Shown in pieces: positions 24,153 through 33,922 of a stretch of DNA of 41,766 nt. Numbering within the stretch: position 1 is the stretch's first letter; every line of letters starts with the position of its first letter. Made by a program: the position numbers and the translations under genes. The DNA comes from a virus (lineage: Duplodnaviria > Heunggongvirae > Uroviricota > Caudoviricetes). Where the stretch lies: IMG/VR virus record IMGVR_UViG_2531839131_000018. The stretch is one strand, 5' to 3'. The notes below the pieces were generated by a model. That model saw only the letters and a list, made by a program, of their open reading frames with translations, was not told the DNA's origin and made no database searches.

Positions 24153-25657
24153 TGGCAATTCTGGATGATGTGATTGGTGTTTTTTCTCCAGGCTGGAAAG
24201 CTGCGAGGTTGCGATCAAGAGCGTTAATCTGCGCTTATGAGGCCGTGAAACCCACACGCACACACAAAGCCCGACGGGAAAACCGTTCTGCCGACCAGCT
24301 CAGTAAGTACGGGGCGGTTTCCCTGCGGGAGCAGGCCCGTTTTCTGGATATCAATCATGACCTCGTAATCGGCGTTTTCGACAAGCTTGAGGAGCGGGTG
24401 ATTGGTGCAAAAGGGATTATTGTTGAACCCCAGCCATTACTGAAAAACGGTGGTGTGGCTACAGAGCTGGCAATGATTATCCGTCGTTTGTGGGCGGAAT
24501 GGTCTGTCAGTCCGGATGTGACCGGACAGCATACGCGCCCCATGCTCGAACGTCTGCTGTTGCGTACCTGGTTACGTGATGGCGAAGTTTTTGCCCAGAT
24601 GGTCAGAGGCGCAGGTGCCGGGCTGGCGCGGACTGCCGGTGTGCCTTTCTGGCTCGAGGCTATGGAGCCGGATTTTGTGCCCATGCTCAGTGATGAGTCT
24701 GCGGGAATGAATCAGGGGGTTTTTCTGGATGAGTGGGGCAGACCGAAAAAATACCTTGTTTATAAAAATTATCCGGTTACCGGACGGCAGAGTGATACCA
24801 AAGAGATTGCAGCTGAAAATATGGTGCATCTGAAGTTTACCCGCCGGCTGCACCAGACGCGTGGTACATCCATGTTGTCGGGTGTGCTGATGCGGATCAG
24901 TGCACTTAAGGAGTACGAGGATTCTGAGTTGGTTGCAGCGCGTGTTGCTGCGGCTCTGGGGTTATATATTCGTAAAGGAGATGGACAGGATTATGAAGAT
25001 GTTGTGACAAATAAAGATAATGACCGGGAGTTGCATATCACTCCCGGCATTATTTATGACGATCTTCGTAAGGGGGAAGATATTGGCATGGTCAAATCTG
25101 ACAGGCCTAACCCTAACCTGGAAACTTTTCGTAATGGTCAGTTGCGGGCCATGGCGGCGGGCACACGTCTGAGTTTTTCCAGTACAGCACGTAACTATAA
25201 CGGTACCTACAGCGCCCAGCGACAGGAACTGGTTGAGTCCCCCGATGGCTATCTGATCCTGCAGGACTGTTTTATTGGTGGCGTAACCCGTCCGGTGTAC
25301 CGGGCATGGCTGAATATGGTGGTCGCCGCGGGGTTACTGAAAATTCCGTCGGATGTGGATATGAAAACGTTATATAACGCAACATATTCTGGCCCGGTGA
25401 TGCCGTGGATCGACCCGGTCAAGGAGGCTGAAGCCTGGAAAATTCAGATCCGGGGTGGTGCGGCGACAGAATCAGACTGGGTGCGCGCCAGTGGTCGTAA
25501 TCCGGATGACGTCAAACGTCGGCGTAAGGCTGAGATTGATGAAAACCGCAGGCTGGAACTGGTATTTGATACCGATCCGGCAAGTGATAAAGGAGGTGGT
25601 AATGCTGAAACAGAACGCGTGGTTCCGCGGCGAACCGAAGGCCAGCCTGAAGAATAA
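24152..25657 (+). CDS. B: Portal protein (lambda gpB-like, 501 aa)
   Basis: Position after W, size and composition consistent with lambda-family portal proteins. Confidence 0.85.
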   Translation: MAILDDVIGVFSPGWKAARLRSRALICAYEAVKPTRTHKARRENRSADQLSKYGAVSLREQARFLDINHDLVIGVFDKLEERVIGAKGIIVEPQPLLKNGGVATELAMIIRRLWAEWSVSPDVTGQHTRPMLERLLLRTWLRDGEVFAQMVRGAGAGLARTAGVPFWLEAMEPDFVPMLSDESAGMNQGVFLDEWGRPKKYLVYKNYPVTGRQSDTKEIAAENMVHLKFTRRLHQTRGTSMLSGVLMRISALKEYEDSELVAARVAAALGLYIRKGDGQDYEDVVTNKDNDRELHITPGIIYDDLRKGEDIGMVKSDRPNPNLETFRNGQLRAMAAGTRLSFSSTARNYNGTYSAQRQELVESPDGYLILQDCFIGGVTRPVYRAWLNMVVAAGLLKIPSDVDMKTLYNATYSGPVMPWIDPVKEAEAWKIQIRGGAATESDWVRASGRNPDDVKRRRKAEIDENRRLELVFDTDPASDKGGGNAETERVVPRRTEGQPEE

Positions 25658-27674
25658 TTCCTGGTTCAGGATGAAGGCGGGTCATAAAAGTGATGCGGAT
25701 ATTTATATCTACGATGAGATTGGTTTCTGGGGAGTTACGGCGAAGCAGTTTGTCAGTGATCTGAATGCGCTGGGTAATATCACCCACATTAATCTCCATA
25801 TCAATTCACCGGGTGGCGATGTCTTTGAAGGCATCGCCATTTTTAATGCGCTGAAAAATCACGGAGCATCCATCACTGTTTATGTGGATGGCGTTGCCGC
25901 ATCCATGGCATCGGTCATTGCAATGGTGGGGGATCCTGTCATCATGCCAGAAAATGCATTCATGATGATCCATAAACCATGGGGAGTGAGTGGTGGCGAT
26001 GCGGATGATATGCGCGATTATGCCGACCTGCTTGATAAAGTTGAATCGGTCCTGTTGCCTGCTTATGCGCAAAAAACCGGAAAAACTACCGATGAAATTG
26101 CCGCCTTGCTGAAGGATGAAACCTGGATGTCTGGTGCCGAATGCCTGGCACACGGATTTGCTGACCAGGTGACACCGGAAGTTAAGGCCATGGCATGTAT
26201 TCAGTCAAAACGTACAGAGGAATTTAAAAAAATGCCGGAATCCATCCGAAATATGATTATTCCGCCACGCAACAGTGCAACGCGTGAGCCTGAAAACAAA
26301 AATACTGTATCTCAGACACAGGAGCAGACTACGGCTCAGGTTGTCGCAACCGCGACCAGTACCGTGACCACTGCAAATGCGTCTTCCGCAGATGAAAGCA
26401 GTATCCGTGCACAGGTGCTGGCTGAGCAAAAAGCACGCGTGAGTGGTATTAATGATCTGTTTGGTATGTTTGGCGGGCGTTATCAGACATTGCAGGCCAG
26501 TTGTCTTTCCGATCCGGAGTGCTCGCTTGAGCAGGCTCGCGAGAAGTTACTGAATGAAATGGGTAAGGAATTTTCACCATCAAATAAAAATACCCCGTCC
26601 CATATTTATGCCGGCAACGGTAATTTTGTGGGGGACGGGATTCGTCAGGCGCTGATGGCGCGTGCCGGATTTGCTGAGCGTGAACAGGATAACGTCTATA
26701 ACGGGATGACCCTGCGTGAATATGCCCGAATGTCACTGACAGAACGTGGTATTGGGGTTTCCGGTTATAACCCGATGCAGATGGTCGGGGCTGCGTTCAC
26801 GCACAGCACGTCTGACTTCGGTAATATTCTCCTGGATGTCGCGAACAAAGCCATTCTGCAGGGATGGGAAGAAGCCCCTGAGACTTACGAACAGTGGACC
26901 CGGAAAGGTCAGCTGTCTGATTTTAAAATTGCCCATCGTGTGGGAATGGGGGGCTTCAGTTCTCTGCGTCAGGTGCGTGAAGGGGCTGAATATAAGTACG
27001 TCACCACCGGAGATAAACAGGCCACGATTGCACTGGCGACTTATGGTGAACTGTTCAGCATCACCCGTCAGGCCATTATCAACGATGATCTGAATATGCT
27101 GACCGATGTTCCGATGAAACTGGGGCGTGCGGCGAAATCCACGATTGCCGATCTGGTTTATGCCATTCTGACATCTAACCCGAAAATCTCCACGGATAAT
27201 GTGAGCCTGTTCGATAAAGCGAAACATGCAAACGTGCTGGATAATGCAGTAATGGACGTGGCGTCACTGGATAAAGCCCGCCAGTTGATGCGCGTTCAGA
27301 AAGAGGGCGAGCGTCATCTGAATATTCGTCCTGCGTTCGTACTTGTCCCGACGGCGATGGAATCCGTGGCTAACCAGGTGATCCGTTCTGCCAGTGTGAA
27401 AGGCGCAGATATTAATGCCGGTATTATTAACCCGGTGAAAGATTTTGCGACCGTTATTGCAGAGCCGCGCCTTGATGATAACAGCCAGACCACCTTTTAT
27501 CTGGCTGCGGCGAAAGGTACGGATACCATCGAAGTGGCTTATCTCAATGGGGTGGATACGCCATATATTGATCAGATGGAGGGCTTCAGCGTGGACGGCG
27601 TGACAACGAAAGTGCGTATTGACGCCGGTGTTGCACCAGTTGATCACCGCGGTCTGGTGAAATGTACGGCGTAA
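25602..27674 (+). CDS. Head maturation protease (ClpP/S49-like) fused to major capsid protein (690 aa; alternative start at 25671)
   Basis: AGGAGG Shine-Dalgarno before ATG 25602 (56-nt overlap with portal in another frame); N-terminal protease-like region, central Thr/Ala-rich linker, C-terminal capsid-like domain. Confidence 0.8.
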   Translation: MLKQNAWFRGEPKASLKNNSWFRMKAGHKSDADIYIYDEIGFWGVTAKQFVSDLNALGNITHINLHINSPGGDVFEGIAIFNALKNHGASITVYVDGVAASMASVIAMVGDPVIMPENAFMMIHKPWGVSGGDADDMRDYADLLDKVESVLLPAYAQKTGKTTDEIAALLKDETWMSGAECLAHGFADQVTPEVKAMACIQSKRTEEFKKMPESIRNMIIPPRNSATREPENKNTVSQTQEQTTAQVVATATSTVTTANASSADESSIRAQVLAEQKARVSGINDLFGMFGGRYQTLQASCLSDPECSLEQAREKLLNEMGKEFSPSNKNTPSHIYAGNGNFVGDGIRQALMARAGFAEREQDNVYNGMTLREYARMSLTERGIGVSGYNPMQMVGAAFTHSTSDFGNILLDVANKAILQGWEEAPETYEQWTRKGQLSDFKIAHRVGMGGFSSLRQVREGAEYKYVTTGDKQATIALATYGELFSITRQAIINDDLNMLTDVPMKLGRAAKSTIADLVYAILTSNPKISTDNVSLFDKAKHANVLDNAVMDVASLDKARQLMRVQKEGERHLNIRPAFVLVPTAMESVANQVIRSASVKGADINAGIINPVKDFATVIAEPRLDDNSQTTFYLAAAKGTDTIEVAYLNGVDTPYIDQMEGFSVDGVTTKVRIDAGVAPVDHRGLVKCTA

Positions 27675-27761: not shown

Positions 27762-28085
27762 ATGGCAAAGAATTTTGTGGAAGACGGGAAAACGGTGGAG
27801 ATTGTCGCTGGCGCAAATATCAGTAGCGGAGAGCTGGTACAGGTGGGCGATATTTTTGCTGTGGCACTGACCGATATTGCAAAAGGCGAAATTGGGGACG
27901 GCATGACTGAAGGTGTATTTATGCTGCCGAAACTGAAAACGGATGATATGAAAACCGGTAAGAAGGTTTATCTGAAATCCGGAAAAGTTCAGCTGACGAA
28001 CAGCGGCTCTGATCCGCTGGTCGGGGTTGTCTGGGCAGATGCCGGAACCAGTGCAGAAGACGTGCCGGTAAAACTCAATGTCTGA
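27762..28085 (+). CDS. Small head-associated protein, DUF2190-like (107 aa)
   Basis: GGAGG Shine-Dalgarno; position between capsid and head-tail joining genes; family assignment from memory. Confidence 0.55.
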   Translation: MAKNFVEDGKTVEIVAGANISSGELVQVGDIFAVALTDIAKGEIGDGMTEGVFMLPKLKTDDMKTGKKVYLKSGKVQLTNSGSDPLVGVVWADAGTSAEDVPVKLNV

Positions 28086-28353
28086 TCCCTTTTCCCGGTT
28101 GGCAGCCCGTATGGATGCTGTCACGATCAGAAAAATGGGGAAAACGGCCTCGATTAATGATGCGGATATGATTGTGATCCCGGGAGAAACACTGGCAGAG
28201 CTGAATGCGCTGTCCGGATCGGCGGTTTCTCTGGTGGTGTTTTCTTCGGGGTATCGTCCGCGGCGCGGGGACCGCGTTGTTTATGACGGACAACAATGGA
28301 CGGTCACACGGCATGAACGCTTTAACGGTAAACCCGTGATCTTTATTGAGTAA
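28078..28353 (+). CDS. Head-tail connector protein, FII-like (91 aa)
   Basis: Overlapping start; size and position before Z/U as for lambda FII. Confidence 0.5.
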   Translation: MSDPFSRLAARMDAVTIRKMGKTASINDADMIVIPGETLAELNALSGSAVSLVVFSSGYRPRRGDRVVYDGQQWTVTRHERFNGKPVIFIE

Positions 28354-28363
28354 AGGGGGATGG

Positions 28364-28942
28364 ATGAAGGGGCTTGAGAATGCTATTCGCAATCTGAACA
28401 GCCTTGATACCCGTATGGTACCGCAGGCCAGTGCATGGGCGATAAACCGTGTGGCGCAGAAAGCGGTCTCGGTAGCTACCCGGCAGGTTGCGCAGAATAC
28501 CGTTGCGGGTGACAACCACGTAAAAGGGATCCCCCTGAAAACGGTGCGTCAGCGCGTCCGGGTATTGAAGGCCAGCCCGTCAGGAAAAATGTATGCCCGT
28601 ATCCGGATTAACCGGGGCAACCTGCCAGCCATTAAGCTCGGGGCGGCTCAGGTCAGGCTGGCGCGGCGTGGCGGAAAGCTACGGTACCGGGGAAGTCTGC
28701 TGAAGGTGGGCAAATATCTTTTCCGGGATGCGTTTATTCAGCAACTGGCGAACGGTCGCTGGCATGTGATGCGGCGTATTGACGGCAAAAATCGTTACCC
28801 CATTGATGTGGTGAAAATCCCGTTGTCCGGACCGCTGACGCAGGCATTTACGGAAGCCAGTCGGCATATTGCTGAAACGGAGATGCCGAAACAACTGGGT
28901 TATGCACTGAAGCAGCAACTGAGGTTATTTCTGACACGATGA
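28364..28942 (+). CDS. Z: Tail completion protein Z-like (192 aa)
   Basis: MKGLENAIRNLNSL... with INRVAQKA, GNLPAIKLG, AFIQQLANGRWHVMRRIDGKNRYPIDVVKIPLSGPL, LGYALKQQLRLFLTR matching lambda gpZ as recalled. Confidence 0.8.
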   Translation: MKGLENAIRNLNSLDTRMVPQASAWAINRVAQKAVSVATRQVAQNTVAGDNHVKGIPLKTVRQRVRVLKASPSGKMYARIRINRGNLPAIKLGAAQVRLARRGGKLRYRGSLLKVGKYLFRDAFIQQLANGRWHVMRRIDGKNRYPIDVVKIPLSGPLTQAFTEASRHIAETEMPKQLGYALKQQLRLFLTR

Positions 28943-29340
28943 ACAGACATACAAAAATCCGTCAGGCGGTACTGGCACGTCTGTGTGAGGAGTGTGGCGA
29001 GTGCGCCACATTTTTTGACGGGCTTCCGGCCTTTATTGATGCACAGGAGTTGCCCGCTGTGGCGGTCTGGCTGAGCGATGCCCGGTATACCGGAAAAATG
29101 ACAGATGAGGACGACTGGCAGGCCGTTCTGCATATCGCTGTGTTTATCCGTGCGCAGGCACCGGATTCAGAGCTGGATGAGTGGATGGAAAATAGCATTT
29201 ATCCGGCGCTGAGGCATATACCGGCGCTTTCCGGGCTGATCGACACCATGACACCGCAGGGGTTTAACTACCAGCGCGATGATGAGATGGCGACGTGGGC
29301 GATGGCGGAAATCACGTATCAGATCGCCTACACGAACTGA
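28939..29340 (+). CDS. U: Tail terminator protein U-like (133 aa)
   Basis: ATFFDGLPAFIDAQELPAVAVWL...WQAVLHIAVFIRAQAPDSELDEWMENSIYPAL matches lambda gpU as recalled. Confidence 0.8.
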   Translation: MNRHTKIRQAVLARLCEECGECATFFDGLPAFIDAQELPAVAVWLSDARYTGKMTDEDDWQAVLHIAVFIRAQAPDSELDEWMENSIYPALRHIPALSGLIDTMTPQGFNYQRDDEMATWAMAEITYQIAYTN

Positions 29341-29362
29341 ATAAATAATGTAAGGAGGAGTG

Positions 29363-30133
29363 ATGTCCACACCGAATCCACTGGAGAAAACGAAAGGCGC
29401 AGGGACAACATTCTGGATGTATACCGGGATGGGAGATCCGTTTGCGTCTGCATTGTCAGACACGGACTGGCTGCGACTGGCAATGGTGAAGGATTTGCAG
29501 CCGGGCGAAATGACGGCTGATGCGGAAGACGACACGTATCTTGATGATGAGAATGCGGACTGGAAGAGCACATCTCAGGGCCAGAAAACCGCTGGCGATA
29601 CGTCTGCCACACTGGCATGGCGTCCGGGCGACAGCGGACAGAAAAAACTGGTTGAGTTGTTTTATTCCGGCGAGGTTTGTGCGTTTCGCATTCTGTACCC
29701 CAACGGCACAGTTGATGTTTTTCGTGGCTGGTTGAGTTCGCTGGGCAAAGCGGTGACGTCAACGGAAGTGATGACCCGGACCATCAAAATCACCGGGATT
29801 GGGCGTCCGTACCTGGCGGAAGAGTGTCAGGAGGTGGTCAGCGTCACCGGTGTGACGGTGACACCGATGGCGGTGACACTGCATCCTGGTGAAACGTCCA
29901 AACTGACGTTTGTGCTTGTACCGGAAAACGCCTCGGATAAAACGCTCACGGTGTTTTCCACGGATCCGCAGACAGCAACGGTAAGCCTGAGCGGCCTTGT
30001 GGCTACGGTATCTGCCCGCCAGGAAGGGACGGTCAGTATTGTGGGTATGAGCGGTGATGGCCGTACGGGGCAGGTGGTCAAGGTGACCGTGGCCCCTGCT
30101 GAGGAGAAGAGTACCGGACGTACCCGGGGATAA
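29363..30133 (+). CDS. V: Major tail protein V-like with C-terminal Ig-like domain (256 aa)
   Basis: AAGGAGGAG Shine-Dalgarno; position after U; C-terminal Thr/Val-rich beta-strand-like region typical of Big_2 domains. Confidence 0.8.
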   Translation: MSTPNPLEKTKGAGTTFWMYTGMGDPFASALSDTDWLRLAMVKDLQPGEMTADAEDDTYLDDENADWKSTSQGQKTAGDTSATLAWRPGDSGQKKLVELFYSGEVCAFRILYPNGTVDVFRGWLSSLGKAVTSTEVMTRTIKITGIGRPYLAEECQEVVSVTGVTVTPMAVTLHPGETSKLTFVLVPENASDKTLTVFSTDPQTATVSLSGLVATVSARQEGTVSIVGMSGDGRTGQVVKVTVAPAEEKSTGRTRG

Positions 30134-30193
30134 CAGGGCCATGTTTATCATCAGCCCCGGTTCGCCGGGGTTTTTTATTCGGGGAGAAGAGAA

Positions 30194-30583
30194 ATGTTTC
30201 TGAAACAGGATACGTTTAATTACGGCAATCAGTCGGTGGTACTGAATGAACTGTCTGGTCTGCAGCGTGTGGAATACCTGGCTTATGCCCGTGAACGCGC
30301 GGCGCAGTTTGATGAGGCTTCTGCAGGAATGGAAGAAGGGGCCCGCCAGATTGCTTTTATGGAAATGGGGATGGACATCAACGCCTGGCTGGTTTCCCGT
30401 TCGCTGTGGAATGCCGACCAGTCTCAGAATGTGGCGGCGCTTTTTTCCTCCGTGCGCGTGACATGGTCCTGGGATGCGCTGGGGATGGCGGCGGAAAGCA
30501 TTCTGGCGCTGAGCGGTATGGCACTGACAGTGGCGACAGAGGGGGATGACGTGAAGGAGGTGCTGACGCCGGAAAAGTCCTGA
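30194..30583 (+). CDS. G: Tail assembly chaperone G-like (129 aa)
   Basis: MFLKQDTFNYGNQSVVLNELSGLQRVEYLAY resembles the lambda gpG N-terminus as recalled; followed by a -1-frame ORF overlapping its end. Confidence 0.8.
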   Translation: MFLKQDTFNYGNQSVVLNELSGLQRVEYLAYARERAAQFDEASAGMEEGARQIAFMEMGMDINAWLVSRSLWNADQSQNVAALFSSVRVTWSWDALGMAAESILALSGMALTVATEGDDVKEVLTPEKS

Positions 30584-30591
30584 CGCAGGAA

Positions 30592-30906
30592 ATGCAGTTT
30601 GTCATGCGGCTGGCCCGGGAGTTCCGGCGGGGCGACTGGCGGCGAATGCTGTCAGAAATGTCAGCCACAGAACTGGGAGAGTGGGGGGATTATTTCCGGC
30701 GGCAGAGTTTCAGTGATGTGTGGCTGGATGCGCAATTTGCCACACTGAAAACGCTGATTGTGCAGATGGTTTCCGGAAAAACCGTGGCGGCGGATATGTT
30801 CAGCTTGTTGCCTTCAGAGACAGAAGCGCCCGTCCGGACAGATGAAGAGCTGATGTTTCTGGGGGAAGGTATCGCGGGAGGAATAAGAATTGAGCCAGAT
30901 AGCTGA
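30592..30906 (+). CDS. T: T-frame extension of the G-T tail assembly chaperone (frame open from 30550; expected to be made as a G-T fusion by -1 frameshift)
   Basis: ORF in the -1 frame relative to G, open across the G stop; candidate slip site G GAA AAG at 30571-30577. Confidence 0.6.
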   Translation: MQFVMRLAREFRRGDWRRMLSEMSATELGEWGDYFRRQSFSDVWLDAQFATLKTLIVQMVSGKTVAADMFSLLPSETEAPVRTDEELMFLGEGIAGGIRIEPDS

Positions 30907-33900
30907 CCTTGTTATTGATTTAAGTGTTGATACGGCTGATTTTAAGGAACAGCTTCCGCGTATTAAAGCGCAACTCAATGGTACCGCCAGCGAAGCGGCG
31001 CGCGCAGAAGCGCGGGTCAGACAGTTTGAAGCGAGTCAGAAGCAGGCGGCGACTACCGCGGTGAAACAGACTCAGGCACTGGCGGGGAATGCGCAGGCGC
31101 ATGTTTCGTTGTCAGAGGATGTGGAACAGACCCGTCAGCGACTTGATGCCCTGAACCGGAAAATGCGTGAGGAGCAGGCGCAGGCGGCGGCACTGGCTGC
31201 TGCTCAGGATAAAGCCGCTGCTGCATTTTATCGTCAGATTGACAGTGTGAAACAGGCGGGGGCCGGACTGCAGGAGCTGCAGCGTATTCAGCAGCAGGTC
31301 CGTCAGGCCAGAAACAATGGTGGCATCGCGCAGCAGGATTATCTGGCGTTAATCTCCGAAGTGACGGCAAAAACCCGCGTGCTGGCTCAGGCTGAAGAAT
31401 CCGCCACCCGCCAGAAGACGGCCTTTATCCGGCGGCTGAAGGAGCAGGTATCCGCTCAGAATCTTTCATCCACGGAGCTGCTCAGGGCAAAAGCCGCGCA
31501 GCTGGGTGTCAGTAGTGCGGCTGAGGTGTATATCAGCAAAATGGAAAAAGCCGGGAAGGTCACGCATTCGCTGGGGCTGAAAAGTGCGGCGGCCCGCCAG
31601 GAGATAGGTGTTCTGATAGGTGAAATTGCCCGGGGTAATTTCGGTGCGCTTCGTGGCTCCGGGATCACCCTGGCTAACCGTGCCGGATGGATTGACGCGC
31701 TGATGTCCCCGAAAGGCATGGCTGTCGGCGGGGTTATCGGTGGACTCACTGCTGCTGTTGTCGGGCTGGGAAAGGCCTGGTATGACGGTCAGAAGGAGGG
31801 GGAGGTGTTTAATCGTCAGCTGGCGTTGACAGGGCATTATGCGGGCATCACTACCGGACAGCTGTGGACTCTCAGTCGCGCCATTTCCGGGAATGGTATC
31901 ACGCAACATGCTGCAGCCAGTGCGCTGGCTCAGGCGGTTGGCAGCGGTGCATTTCGTGGAGGTGATATCGCCATGGTGGCGAAAGCTGCCGCGCAAATGG
32001 AAAGTTCAGTGGGGCAGTCTGTCAGCGACACCATCAGTCAGTTTAAGCGACTGAAGGATGACCCGGTAAATGCAGCCAGGACGCTGGATAATGAACTGCA
32101 TTTCCTGACTGCCACCCAGCTTGAACAAATCCGTGTTCTCGGGGAACAGGGGCGTGCCAGTGATGCTGCCCGGATCGCCATGTCAGCGCTGGCAGAGGAA
32201 ACCGGTAAACGCACATCTGATATTGATAATAATCTCAATGCGCTGGGCAGTACGCTGCAAACCTTATCTGACTGGTGGAAGCAGTTCTGGGATGCCGCCA
32301 TGAATATCGGGCGTAATGATTCCCTTGATGCGCAGATTGCGGCGCTGCAGGAAAAAATTCAGCGTGCGAAAAAATCGCCCTGGACAAATGCATCCACCAC
32401 AGTGGAATACGACCAGCAGCGCCTTGATGAACTTCAGGAGAAAAAGCGCCAGAAAGATTTACAGGATGCAAAAGAGCAGGCAGAGCGGAATTATCAGGAG
32501 CAACAGAAACGCCGGAATGCTGAAAATGCCGCGCTGAACCGGATGAACGAAACGGAAGCGGCACGACATCAGCGTGAAATTGCGCGTATTAATGCCATGC
32601 AGTACGCAGATCAGTCGGTCAGGGACGCAGCGATACAGCGTGAAAATAAACGTCACAAAAAAGCCATTAAGAAAGAAACGCCTGCCACCCGTAATGATGA
32701 GGCCACCCGGTTATTACTGCAGTACAGCCAGCAACAGGCGCAGGTGGAGGGGCAGATCGCCGCCGCCAGACAGTCCGCGGGACTGACCACGAAAAAAATG
32801 ACGGAAGCGCATAAGCAGCTTCTGGCCCTGCAGCAGCGTATCAGTGATTTAGCCGGTAAAAAGCTGACGGCAGATGAAAAAAGCGTGCTGGCGCATAAGG
32901 ATGAACTGATTCAGGCGCTGACGCTGCTGGATGCAAAACAGCAGGAGCTGCAGAAGCAGACGGCGCTGAATGACCTTAAGAAAAAATCCATTCAGCTTGC
33001 CAGCCAGCTGGCGGAAGAGGAGCGGGTTCTGCGTCAGCAACATGACCTGGATATCGCCACGACAGGGATGGGGGATAAACAGCGTCAGCGATACCAGGCA
33101 CAGTTCAGTCTGCAACAAAAATATCAGCAGCAGCGGGAACAGTTGGAGCGTGACAGTAAGCGGAAAGGAACATATGGCACAGATGAATACCGGAATGCTG
33201 AGCAGACGCTGACAGACAGTCTTAACCGGCAACTGAACGAAAACAGACGCTACTGGCAGGAGCAGGAACTGATGCAGGCAGACTGGAAAAACGGTGCCAT
33301 GCGGGCGTTTCAGAATTTTACGGCAGATGCGGATAATGCGGCAGGAACTGCTGAGCAGATGTTTACAGCGGCATTTAACAGTGCAGGTAATGCACTGGCG
33401 ACGTTCTGCACGACAGGTAAACTGAATTTCAAATCCTTTACCGCCTCGCTTCTTTCCGACCTGGCAAAAATCATGGCGCAGATGGCCATTATGCAGGCGG
33501 TGAAGGGGATTGGTTCGGCGTTTGGCTGGGGGAGCGCATCCGCTGCCAGTGTGACGCCCAATGCAGATGGCGGTGTTTATCAGTCTGCGGATTTGAGCCG
33601 TTACAGTGGCTCAGTGGTTAACCGCCCGACGTTTTTTGCCTTTGCAAAAGGCGCGGGGGTGATGGGAGAAGCGGGACCTGAAGCCATTCTGCCACTGCGT
33701 CGTGGTGCCGACGGTAAGCTGGGCGTTGTGGCGGATATTGGTGGTTCAGGCATGGTGATGTTTGCCCCGCAGTACAACATCGCGATCAATAACGACGGTA
33801 CGAACGGGCAGATAGGTCCGGCTGCCCTGAAGGTGGTTTATGACCTCGGGAAAAAAGCTGCAGCGGACTTTATGCAACAGCAGTCCCGTGATGGCGGTCA

Positions 33901-33922
33901 GTTAAGCGGAGTGTATCGGTAA
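30890..33922 (+). CDS. H: Tail tape measure protein H-like (1010 aa)
   Basis: TTG start with GGGAGG upstream; long coiled-coil-rich ORF; C-terminal INNDGTNGQIGPAALKVVYDLGKKAAADFMQQQSRDGG matches the lambda gpH C-terminus as recalled. Confidence 0.9.
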   Translation: MSQIADLVIDLSVDTADFKEQLPRIKAQLNGTASEAARAEARVRQFEASQKQAATTAVKQTQALAGNAQAHVSLSEDVEQTRQRLDALNRKMREEQAQAAALAAAQDKAAAAFYRQIDSVKQAGAGLQELQRIQQQVRQARNNGGIAQQDYLALISEVTAKTRVLAQAEESATRQKTAFIRRLKEQVSAQNLSSTELLRAKAAQLGVSSAAEVYISKMEKAGKVTHSLGLKSAAARQEIGVLIGEIARGNFGALRGSGITLANRAGWIDALMSPKGMAVGGVIGGLTAAVVGLGKAWYDGQKEGEVFNRQLALTGHYAGITTGQLWTLSRAISGNGITQHAAASALAQAVGSGAFRGGDIAMVAKAAAQMESSVGQSVSDTISQFKRLKDDPVNAARTLDNELHFLTATQLEQIRVLGEQGRASDAARIAMSALAEETGKRTSDIDNNLNALGSTLQTLSDWWKQFWDAAMNIGRNDSLDAQIAALQEKIQRAKKSPWTNASTTVEYDQQRLDELQEKKRQKDLQDAKEQAERNYQEQQKRRNAENAALNRMNETEAARHQREIARINAMQYADQSVRDAAIQRENKRHKKAIKKETPATRNDEATRLLLQYSQQQAQVEGQIAAARQSAGLTTKKMTEAHKQLLALQQRISDLAGKKLTADEKSVLAHKDELIQALTLLDAKQQELQKQTALNDLKKKSIQLASQLAEEERVLRQQHDLDIATTGMGDKQRQRYQAQFSLQQKYQQQREQLERDSKRKGTYGTDEYRNAEQTLTDSLNRQLNENRRYWQEQELMQADWKNGAMRAFQNFTADADNAAGTAEQMFTAAFNSAGNALATFCTTGKLNFKSFTASLLSDLAKIMAQMAIMQAVKGIGSAFGWGSASAASVTPNADGGVYQSADLSRYSGSVVNRPTFFAFAKGAGVMGEAGPEAILPLRRGADGKLGVVADIGGSGMVMFAPQYNIAINNDGTNGQIGPAALKVVYDLGKKAAADFMQQQSRDGGQLSGVYR

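Follow-up and report, generated by a model that had tools for sequence, protein, structure and literature searches.

In a lambda-like Escherichia coli prophage, ribosomes translating the tail gene G very probably shift by −1 on the heptamer G_GAA_AAG, most likely by slippage of two tRNAs, to make a G-T fusion beside abundant G. The site is real and already known in kind: it represents an ordinary case of the lambda G/GT frameshift system. We analyzed a stretch of 41,766 nucleotides (IMG/VR record IMGVR_UViG_2531839131_000018; hereafter, the window), in which the parts described below from V to H lie on the + strand. According to the proposed mechanism, a small share of the ribosomes translating G would move back one base on G_GAA_AAG (30571-30577) and continue in the T frame, so that a 237-aa G-T fusion would be produced alongside the abundant 129-aa G protein. 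By analogy with work on lambda, the fusion would bind the tape measure protein through its G part and recruit the tail tube protein through its T part.

Frame geometry of the G-T overlap

Gene G (30194..30583) encodes a tail assembly chaperone with a 0-frame product of 129 aa (PF06894, E=4.9e-35; TIGR01674). Its 0 frame ends with ACG CCG GAA AAG TCC TGA, the stop codon occupying 30581-30583. The −1 (T) frame contains a TGA at 30547-30549, followed by an open stretch that begins at 30550 and runs to the stop codon at 30904-30906. Both frames are therefore open together only in 30550..30583 (34 nt), and the shift has to fall inside this overlap. When the overlap was read codon by codon, A_AAG (30574-30577) was the sole Z_ZZN tetramer and G_GAA_AAG (30571..30577) the sole slip-like heptamer, with GAA and tRNA-Glu in the P site and AAG and tRNA-Lys in the A site; no other slip site was found in the 34 nt. 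An earlier note on this DNA had placed G, the open T frame, the overlap and the heptamer correctly to the base, and its statement that this heptamer alone is slip-like in the overlap was borne out by the reading. A GGGGGA run at 30541-30546 was considered as a slip site and rejected, because it precedes the −1-frame TGA and a shift there would lead to an immediate stop.

As a bare string, the heptamer is not unusual in the window, in which GGRAAAG was counted 14 times against an expectation of 12.4. What is non-random is its phase and its place within the 34-nt overlap, together with its conservation. The chance of an in-phase heptamer in the overlap was estimated at roughly 0.002 (about 8 positions × about 2.6e-4 per position). 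The predicted GT fusion is join(30194..30577,30577..30906), with the junction between ...TPEK and VLTQEMQF..., and its T-frame coding part (30577..30906) is supported by PF06223, TIGR01715 and the T-frame alignment.

Gene identities and the tail module

The G protein matched TIGR01674 (phage_lambda_G equivalog) with 140.4 bits (cutoff, 74.45), and the −1 frame matched both PF06223 (E=4.3e-12) and TIGR01715 (phage_lam_T equivalog; 129.9 bits, cutoff 77.35). Pfam matches showed that the tail module of the window is complete and in the lambda order Z-U-V-G-T-H-M-L-K-I, beginning with Z (28346-28942) and U (28939-29340). G and T have the major tail tube gene V on their upstream side and the tape measure gene H downstream. 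The V homologue (29360..30133) encodes a major tail tube protein with a C-terminal Big_2 domain (PF16461 Phage_TTP_12, E=1e-63; PF02368 Big_2), and the H homologue (30890..33922; PF06791, PF09718, PF24622) has a 17-nt overlap with the end of T. The tape measure gene apparently starts at TTG 30890, within the end of T, and its GGAGG ribosome binding site is formed by codons of the conserved C-terminal G-G-x-R motif of T (30873-30906). Upstream of the tail genes, the head gene (25602-27674) is a single 690-aa ORF with a ClpP-type prohead protease domain (residues 45-191) and a capsid domain (residues 392-687), followed by a cement (decoration) protein gene at 27762-28085.

Between V and G we found a terminator-like hairpin (30153..30180) consisting of an 8-bp GC-rich stem with the loop TTCG and followed by a T run. 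A terminator or stem-loop is annotated at the same V-G place in mEp460, Ayreon and N15, and the hairpin may lower the transcription of G-T-H relative to V.

As a whole, the window is a lambda-like prophage of E. coli. Near-identical copies are present in two complete E. coli genomes, and versions with approximately 75% identity in 1295 of 5426 complete E. coli genomes.

Conservation of the heptamer among related junctions

The earlier note had proposed comparing related G-T junctions. We collected such junctions from annotated phages, IMG/VR contigs, one genome per GTDB species and E. coli genomes, and obtained 201 loci with a parsable junction, which fell into 38 unique junction sequences and 20 distinct classes. 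GG[A/G]AAAG was present at the homologous position in all 201, down to about 30% identity of the G protein. An additional scan of IMG/VR with the T alignment returned mostly mEp460/O157-type loci and no further junction class. Neither the rest of the overlap nor the window nor any relative had a canonical X_XXY_YYZ site, so that the alignment result named by the earlier note as refuting its reading did not arise. Exact lambda G-T was also seen on short or low-coverage contigs assigned to Neobacillus, Oceanobacillus, Kitasatospora, Shewanella, Pseudomonas, Leeuwenhoekiella, Chromatium and others; lambda G-T in assemblies of such unrelated organisms most likely represents contamination with, or spike-in of, lambda DNA.

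GGAAAAG accounted for 30 of the 38 unique junctions and GGGAAAG for the other 8. The former was carried by the window allele, mEp460/cdtI/O157-type prophages, Gifsy-1, Gifsy-2, Fels-1, N15, phi80, HK225 and mEp043, and by prophages of Citrobacter, Superficieibacter, Pluralibacter, Atlantibacter and Phytobacter; the latter by lambda and its close relatives, an Stx2a phage, E. albertii, Serratia and Symbiopectobacterium. As judged from these sequences, G_GAA_AAG is no peculiarity of the window. The earlier note had called the slip sequence non-canonical. This description holds in the strict sense, in that the heptamer fails the X_XXY_YYZ test (GAA → GGA leaves a G.U at P-site codon position 2), but it was oversold, since GGAAAAG is the commonest form in the family and is annotated as a slip site in N15. 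Because most of the family shares the GAA form, failure of the strict motif is no bar to membership in the lambda type.

In the N15 RefSeq record, the seven bases GGAAAAG are marked by a misc_feature as "slippery sequence for -1 translational frameshift", and the Gifsy-1 and Gifsy-2 records give T as a frameshift extension of G. In nine of nine diverse phages, the alignment of the T-frame product begins exactly at the heptamer, with the pattern GK-(V/A)(L/F)xxE(L/M)xFxxxLARE; after the slip Lys, the T frames of the window and lambda both read V(L/F)xxE(L/M)xFxxxLARE. This start of the alignment indicates that the site in the window is positionally homologous to the proven slip site of lambda.

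Comparison with lambda, N15 and other relatives

The likeness to lambda G/G-T extends over the protein families, the gene order, the position of the slip Lys codon and the T-frame continuation (for the biology, see PMC5009743 and PMC3296357). The equivalog matches of G and T, the order of the tail module and the homology of the heptamer to lambda's G GGA AAG together uphold the lambda-like interpretation from which the earlier note had started. The lambda site reads GCG GGA AAG, which confirms a single-base difference in the P-site codon: in lambda this codon is GGA (Gly), with cognate re-pairing, whereas in the window it is GAA (Glu), with a middle G.U. The overlap is also shorter in the window than in lambda (34 versus 64 nt), and the G stop codon lies one codon past the site rather than six.

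Among phages with the GAA form, genes 14/15 of N15 (and likewise phi80, HK225 and mEp043) form lambda-type G/T pairs in which an identical G_GAA_AAG occupies the homologous position. The N15-type G continues for five more codons past the heptamer (CCC TCG CCA GTG AGC TGA), whereas G in the window stops after one (TCC TGA); the G proteins of N15 and the window are only about 31% identical, and N15 is without the upstream Shine-Dalgarno (SD)-like element described below. Closer to the window are Gifsy-1, Gifsy-2, Fels-1 and the mEp460/cdtI/O157-type prophages (G identity, 49-65%), which share the ending ...(A/G)CG CCG GAA AAG (T/C)CC TGA; their junctions lack the 9-nt SD-like match. Across all junctions the G-frame tail past the heptamer was 1-6 codons long and variable in sequence.

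Proposed re-pairing of the two tRNAs

In the proposed slip, the A-site tRNA-Lys would move from AAG to the fully cognate AAA, and the P-site tRNA-Glu (anticodon UUC) would move from GAA to GGA, where positions 1 and 3 would be paired and position 2 would form a G.U (G opposite U35). The same G:U re-pairing has been discussed for actinophage chaperone sites (PMC10885494). A_AAG is the most shift-prone tetramer in E. coli, with cognate re-pairing in the A site as the main rule (PMC4066793). From the gene identities, frame geometry, homology to the lambda site and conservation, all of which were observed directly, we infer that slippage occurs here and that it probably involves both tRNAs.

An unlikely variant of this mechanism gives the same −1 shift by slippage of tRNA-Lys alone on A_AAG, which could take place in the A site or, with TCC waiting, in the P site; GAA would have no re-pairing role. 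It would yield an identical protein product, and A_AAG by itself has reached up to 5.6% shifting with a strong stimulator (PMC4066793). However, we found no strong downstream stimulator, and tetramers alone are near background without one (PMC4066793). The pattern of conservation also argues against it. All junctions had G G at heptamer positions 1 and 2, of which position 1 serves as the wobble base of the preceding 0-frame codon. This codon was CCG, GCG, ACG or GTG (Pro, Ala, Thr or Val), each of them four-fold degenerate, and yet it ended with G in every class, while free variation was seen at the wobble positions of the two codons before it. Position 3 was only A or G, each of which permits re-pairing of the P-site tRNA. 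Under tandem slippage, position 1 is outside any T-frame codon, and its invariance therefore points to selection for re-pairing of the P-site tRNA. As a set of non-independent events in related lineages, this invariance is suggestive of slip-site selection, and the invariant G before a varying codon suggests two-tRNA slippage rather than slippage of tRNA-Lys alone. One counterpoint is that the first G also opens a GGA codon that is invariant in the −1 frame; this would be relevant if there were ribosomes that shifted earlier.

Efficiency of the site and downstream stimulators

In lambda, about 4% of ribosomes shift at G_GGA_AAG, the gpG:gpGT ratio is about 30:1, and this ratio matters for phage yield (PMC3296357, PMC5009743). 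In a system reconstituted from E. coli, where G GAA AAG was included as a "less slippery" counterpart of G GGA AAG, it gave mainly the 0-frame product (PMC6924986); the heptamer was described as unfavourable, which was attributed to the second-position mismatch (PMC6924986). By analogy, it is plausible that the heptamer in the window shifts less efficiently than the lambda form, and the caution in the earlier note that the frameshift efficiency may differ fits this comparison. The published free-energy model has no parameter for an A.U → G.U change at the second P-site position (PMC6787027). A full-text search of one literature library returned no experiments on a GGAAAAG phage G-T site and only the in vitro study (PMC6924986); the paper of Xu, Hendrix and Duda (2004) lay outside the scope of the search.

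Downstream structure was considered as a stimulator and rejected. For the window and for six relatives, folds of the 43, 63 and 130 nt that follow the heptamer were not more stable than those of shuffled sequences. The z-scores in the window were +0.90 for 30578-30620 and +0.14 for 30578-30640, with similar values in the relatives, and the 130-nt fold (z = -1.69) was without a local hairpin. At 5-9 nt past the shift site, where a dnaX/IS-type signal would have its 3' stimulator, the folds showed neither a stable stem-loop nor a pseudoknot. Together with the near-background shifting of tetramers that lack a stimulator (PMC4066793), this is a point against the proposed shift. A search of 30100-31000 against Rfam (E<=1) gave only two chance-level matches, both on the V-G terminator hairpin.

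A Shine-Dalgarno-like element upstream of the heptamer

Within G, AAGGAGGTG (30554..30562) is a 9-nt match to the Shine-Dalgarno consensus and a candidate 5' frameshift stimulator. Its duplex with the 3' end of 16S rRNA was calculated at -15.3 kcal/mol, which ranked second on the + strand of the window, behind the true ribosome binding site of the head gene. The element ends 8 nt before the heptamer; the spacing is 10 nt when counted from AGGAGG, and 8-11 nt depending on the choice of SD core. SD stimulators of −1 shifts act at 9-14 nt (PMC5009743), and the upstream spacing of the element is in agreement with that of a dnaX/IS-type signal. As a ribosome binding site for T, AAGGAGGTG was rejected: no ATG, GTG or TTG lies 5-12 nt downstream of it, and the ATG at 30592 is 29 nt away.

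The dnaX and IS signals of E. coli (A_AAA_AAG, with 5' SD-like and 3' stem-loop stimulators) have the A-site A_AAG and tRNA-Lys in common with the window. The SD spacing is also the same, with AGGAGG + 10 nt in the window and AGGGAG + 10 nt in dnaX, the latter counted on an engineered mRNA that is said to mimic dnaX including its SD (PMC6924986). The window differs from these signals in that it has no downstream stem-loop, its P-site codon is not AAA, and its SD-like element is not conserved among relatives. Among the junctions compared, only the allele of the window and copies nearly identical to it had the 9-nt match. In its place, O157-type alleles show GAGGTG (-9.2) or GAGGCG, and no such sequence lies at that distance in N15, phi80 or lambda. 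Because of this lack of conservation, the role of the element is unproven. It may be an enhancer specific to this lineage, or it may have arisen by coincidence from the coding of Val-Lys-Glu-Val; its chance occurrence was estimated post hoc at about 1%.

A more far-reaching and rather doubtful proposal is that AAGGAGGUG (30554-30562) is a dnaX-style 5' stimulator gained by this allele, which would raise the shift on an intrinsically weak G_GAA_AAG, and that, more generally, the G:GT ratio at GGAAAAG sites is tunable by SD-like elements and dependent on host tRNA thiolation. If this were true, GGAAAAG-type G-T sites would rely on two mnm5s2U34 tRNAs (Glu and Lys), with no structure downstream; the G:GT ratio could for that reason be tuned by local SD-like elements, and it could be more dependent on TUS/MnmA than that of lambda.

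The start of T

The T-frame ORF that opens with an ATG (30592..30594) extends over 30592..30906, and the same ATG is the PGAP start in a near-identical E. coli copy (643-957 of that locus). It is quite improbable that T is made alone from this codon, by reinitiation after the G stop codon 8 nt upstream and with no frameshift. The stop-start distance is in principle compatible with coupling (a general remark in PMC5009743), and PGAP and several phage records give T as a separate CDS; however, the start is inconsistent between database records, in which a stand-alone T begins at the ATG after the G stop codon, at a later ATG, or overlapping the G stop codon. Among the records examined, none of this subfamily contains a joined G-T product. 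The species active in lambda is the G-T fusion, which connects the tape measure protein with the tube protein (PMC5009743).

The sequence around the ATG also argues against an independent start. Its position is Leu (CTG) in Gifsy-1, Gifsy-2, Fels-1, lambda, N15 and phi80, and the only SD-like bases (AGGAA, 30587-30591) abut the ATG. The T frame offers no start codon from 30550 to 30591. T-frame conservation and the TIGR01715 profile reach upstream of the ATG: the profile alignment begins at fusion residue 133, before Met134, and Glu133 was invariant in nine of nine diverse phages with either GAA or GAG as its codon. Such synonymous variation at an invariant Glu is a signature of selection at the protein level. 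These comparisons suggest that ATG 30592 is probably not the functional start of T.

It is scarcely conceivable that the T frame is reached by RNA polymerase slippage on the A run of GGAAAAG, or that the prophage is defective and does not express T: nothing specific speaks for either beyond the run of four A in the heptamer, which is far below the much longer runs used for transcriptional slippage, and the T ORF is intact, scores above the equivalog cutoffs and belongs to a tail module without interruption. E. coli PM7 (NZ_CP073996.1 694230-695866) illustrates the different appearance of a G-T locus that is truly disrupted: an IS3-family transposase is inserted a few bases past the G stop codon and the T frame is cut to 16 codons.

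Implications

The −1 shift on G_GAA_AAG matters little as a discovery. For annotation, the product should be a joined GT protein and not a free-standing T with an arbitrary start. The heptamer that is commonest in lambda-type G-T junctions here is the sequence that was chosen in vitro for its lower slipperiness. The efficiency of this heptamer in vivo, and any contribution of the SD-like element to it, would bear on the G:GT ratio in prophages that are very common in E. coli and Salmonella.
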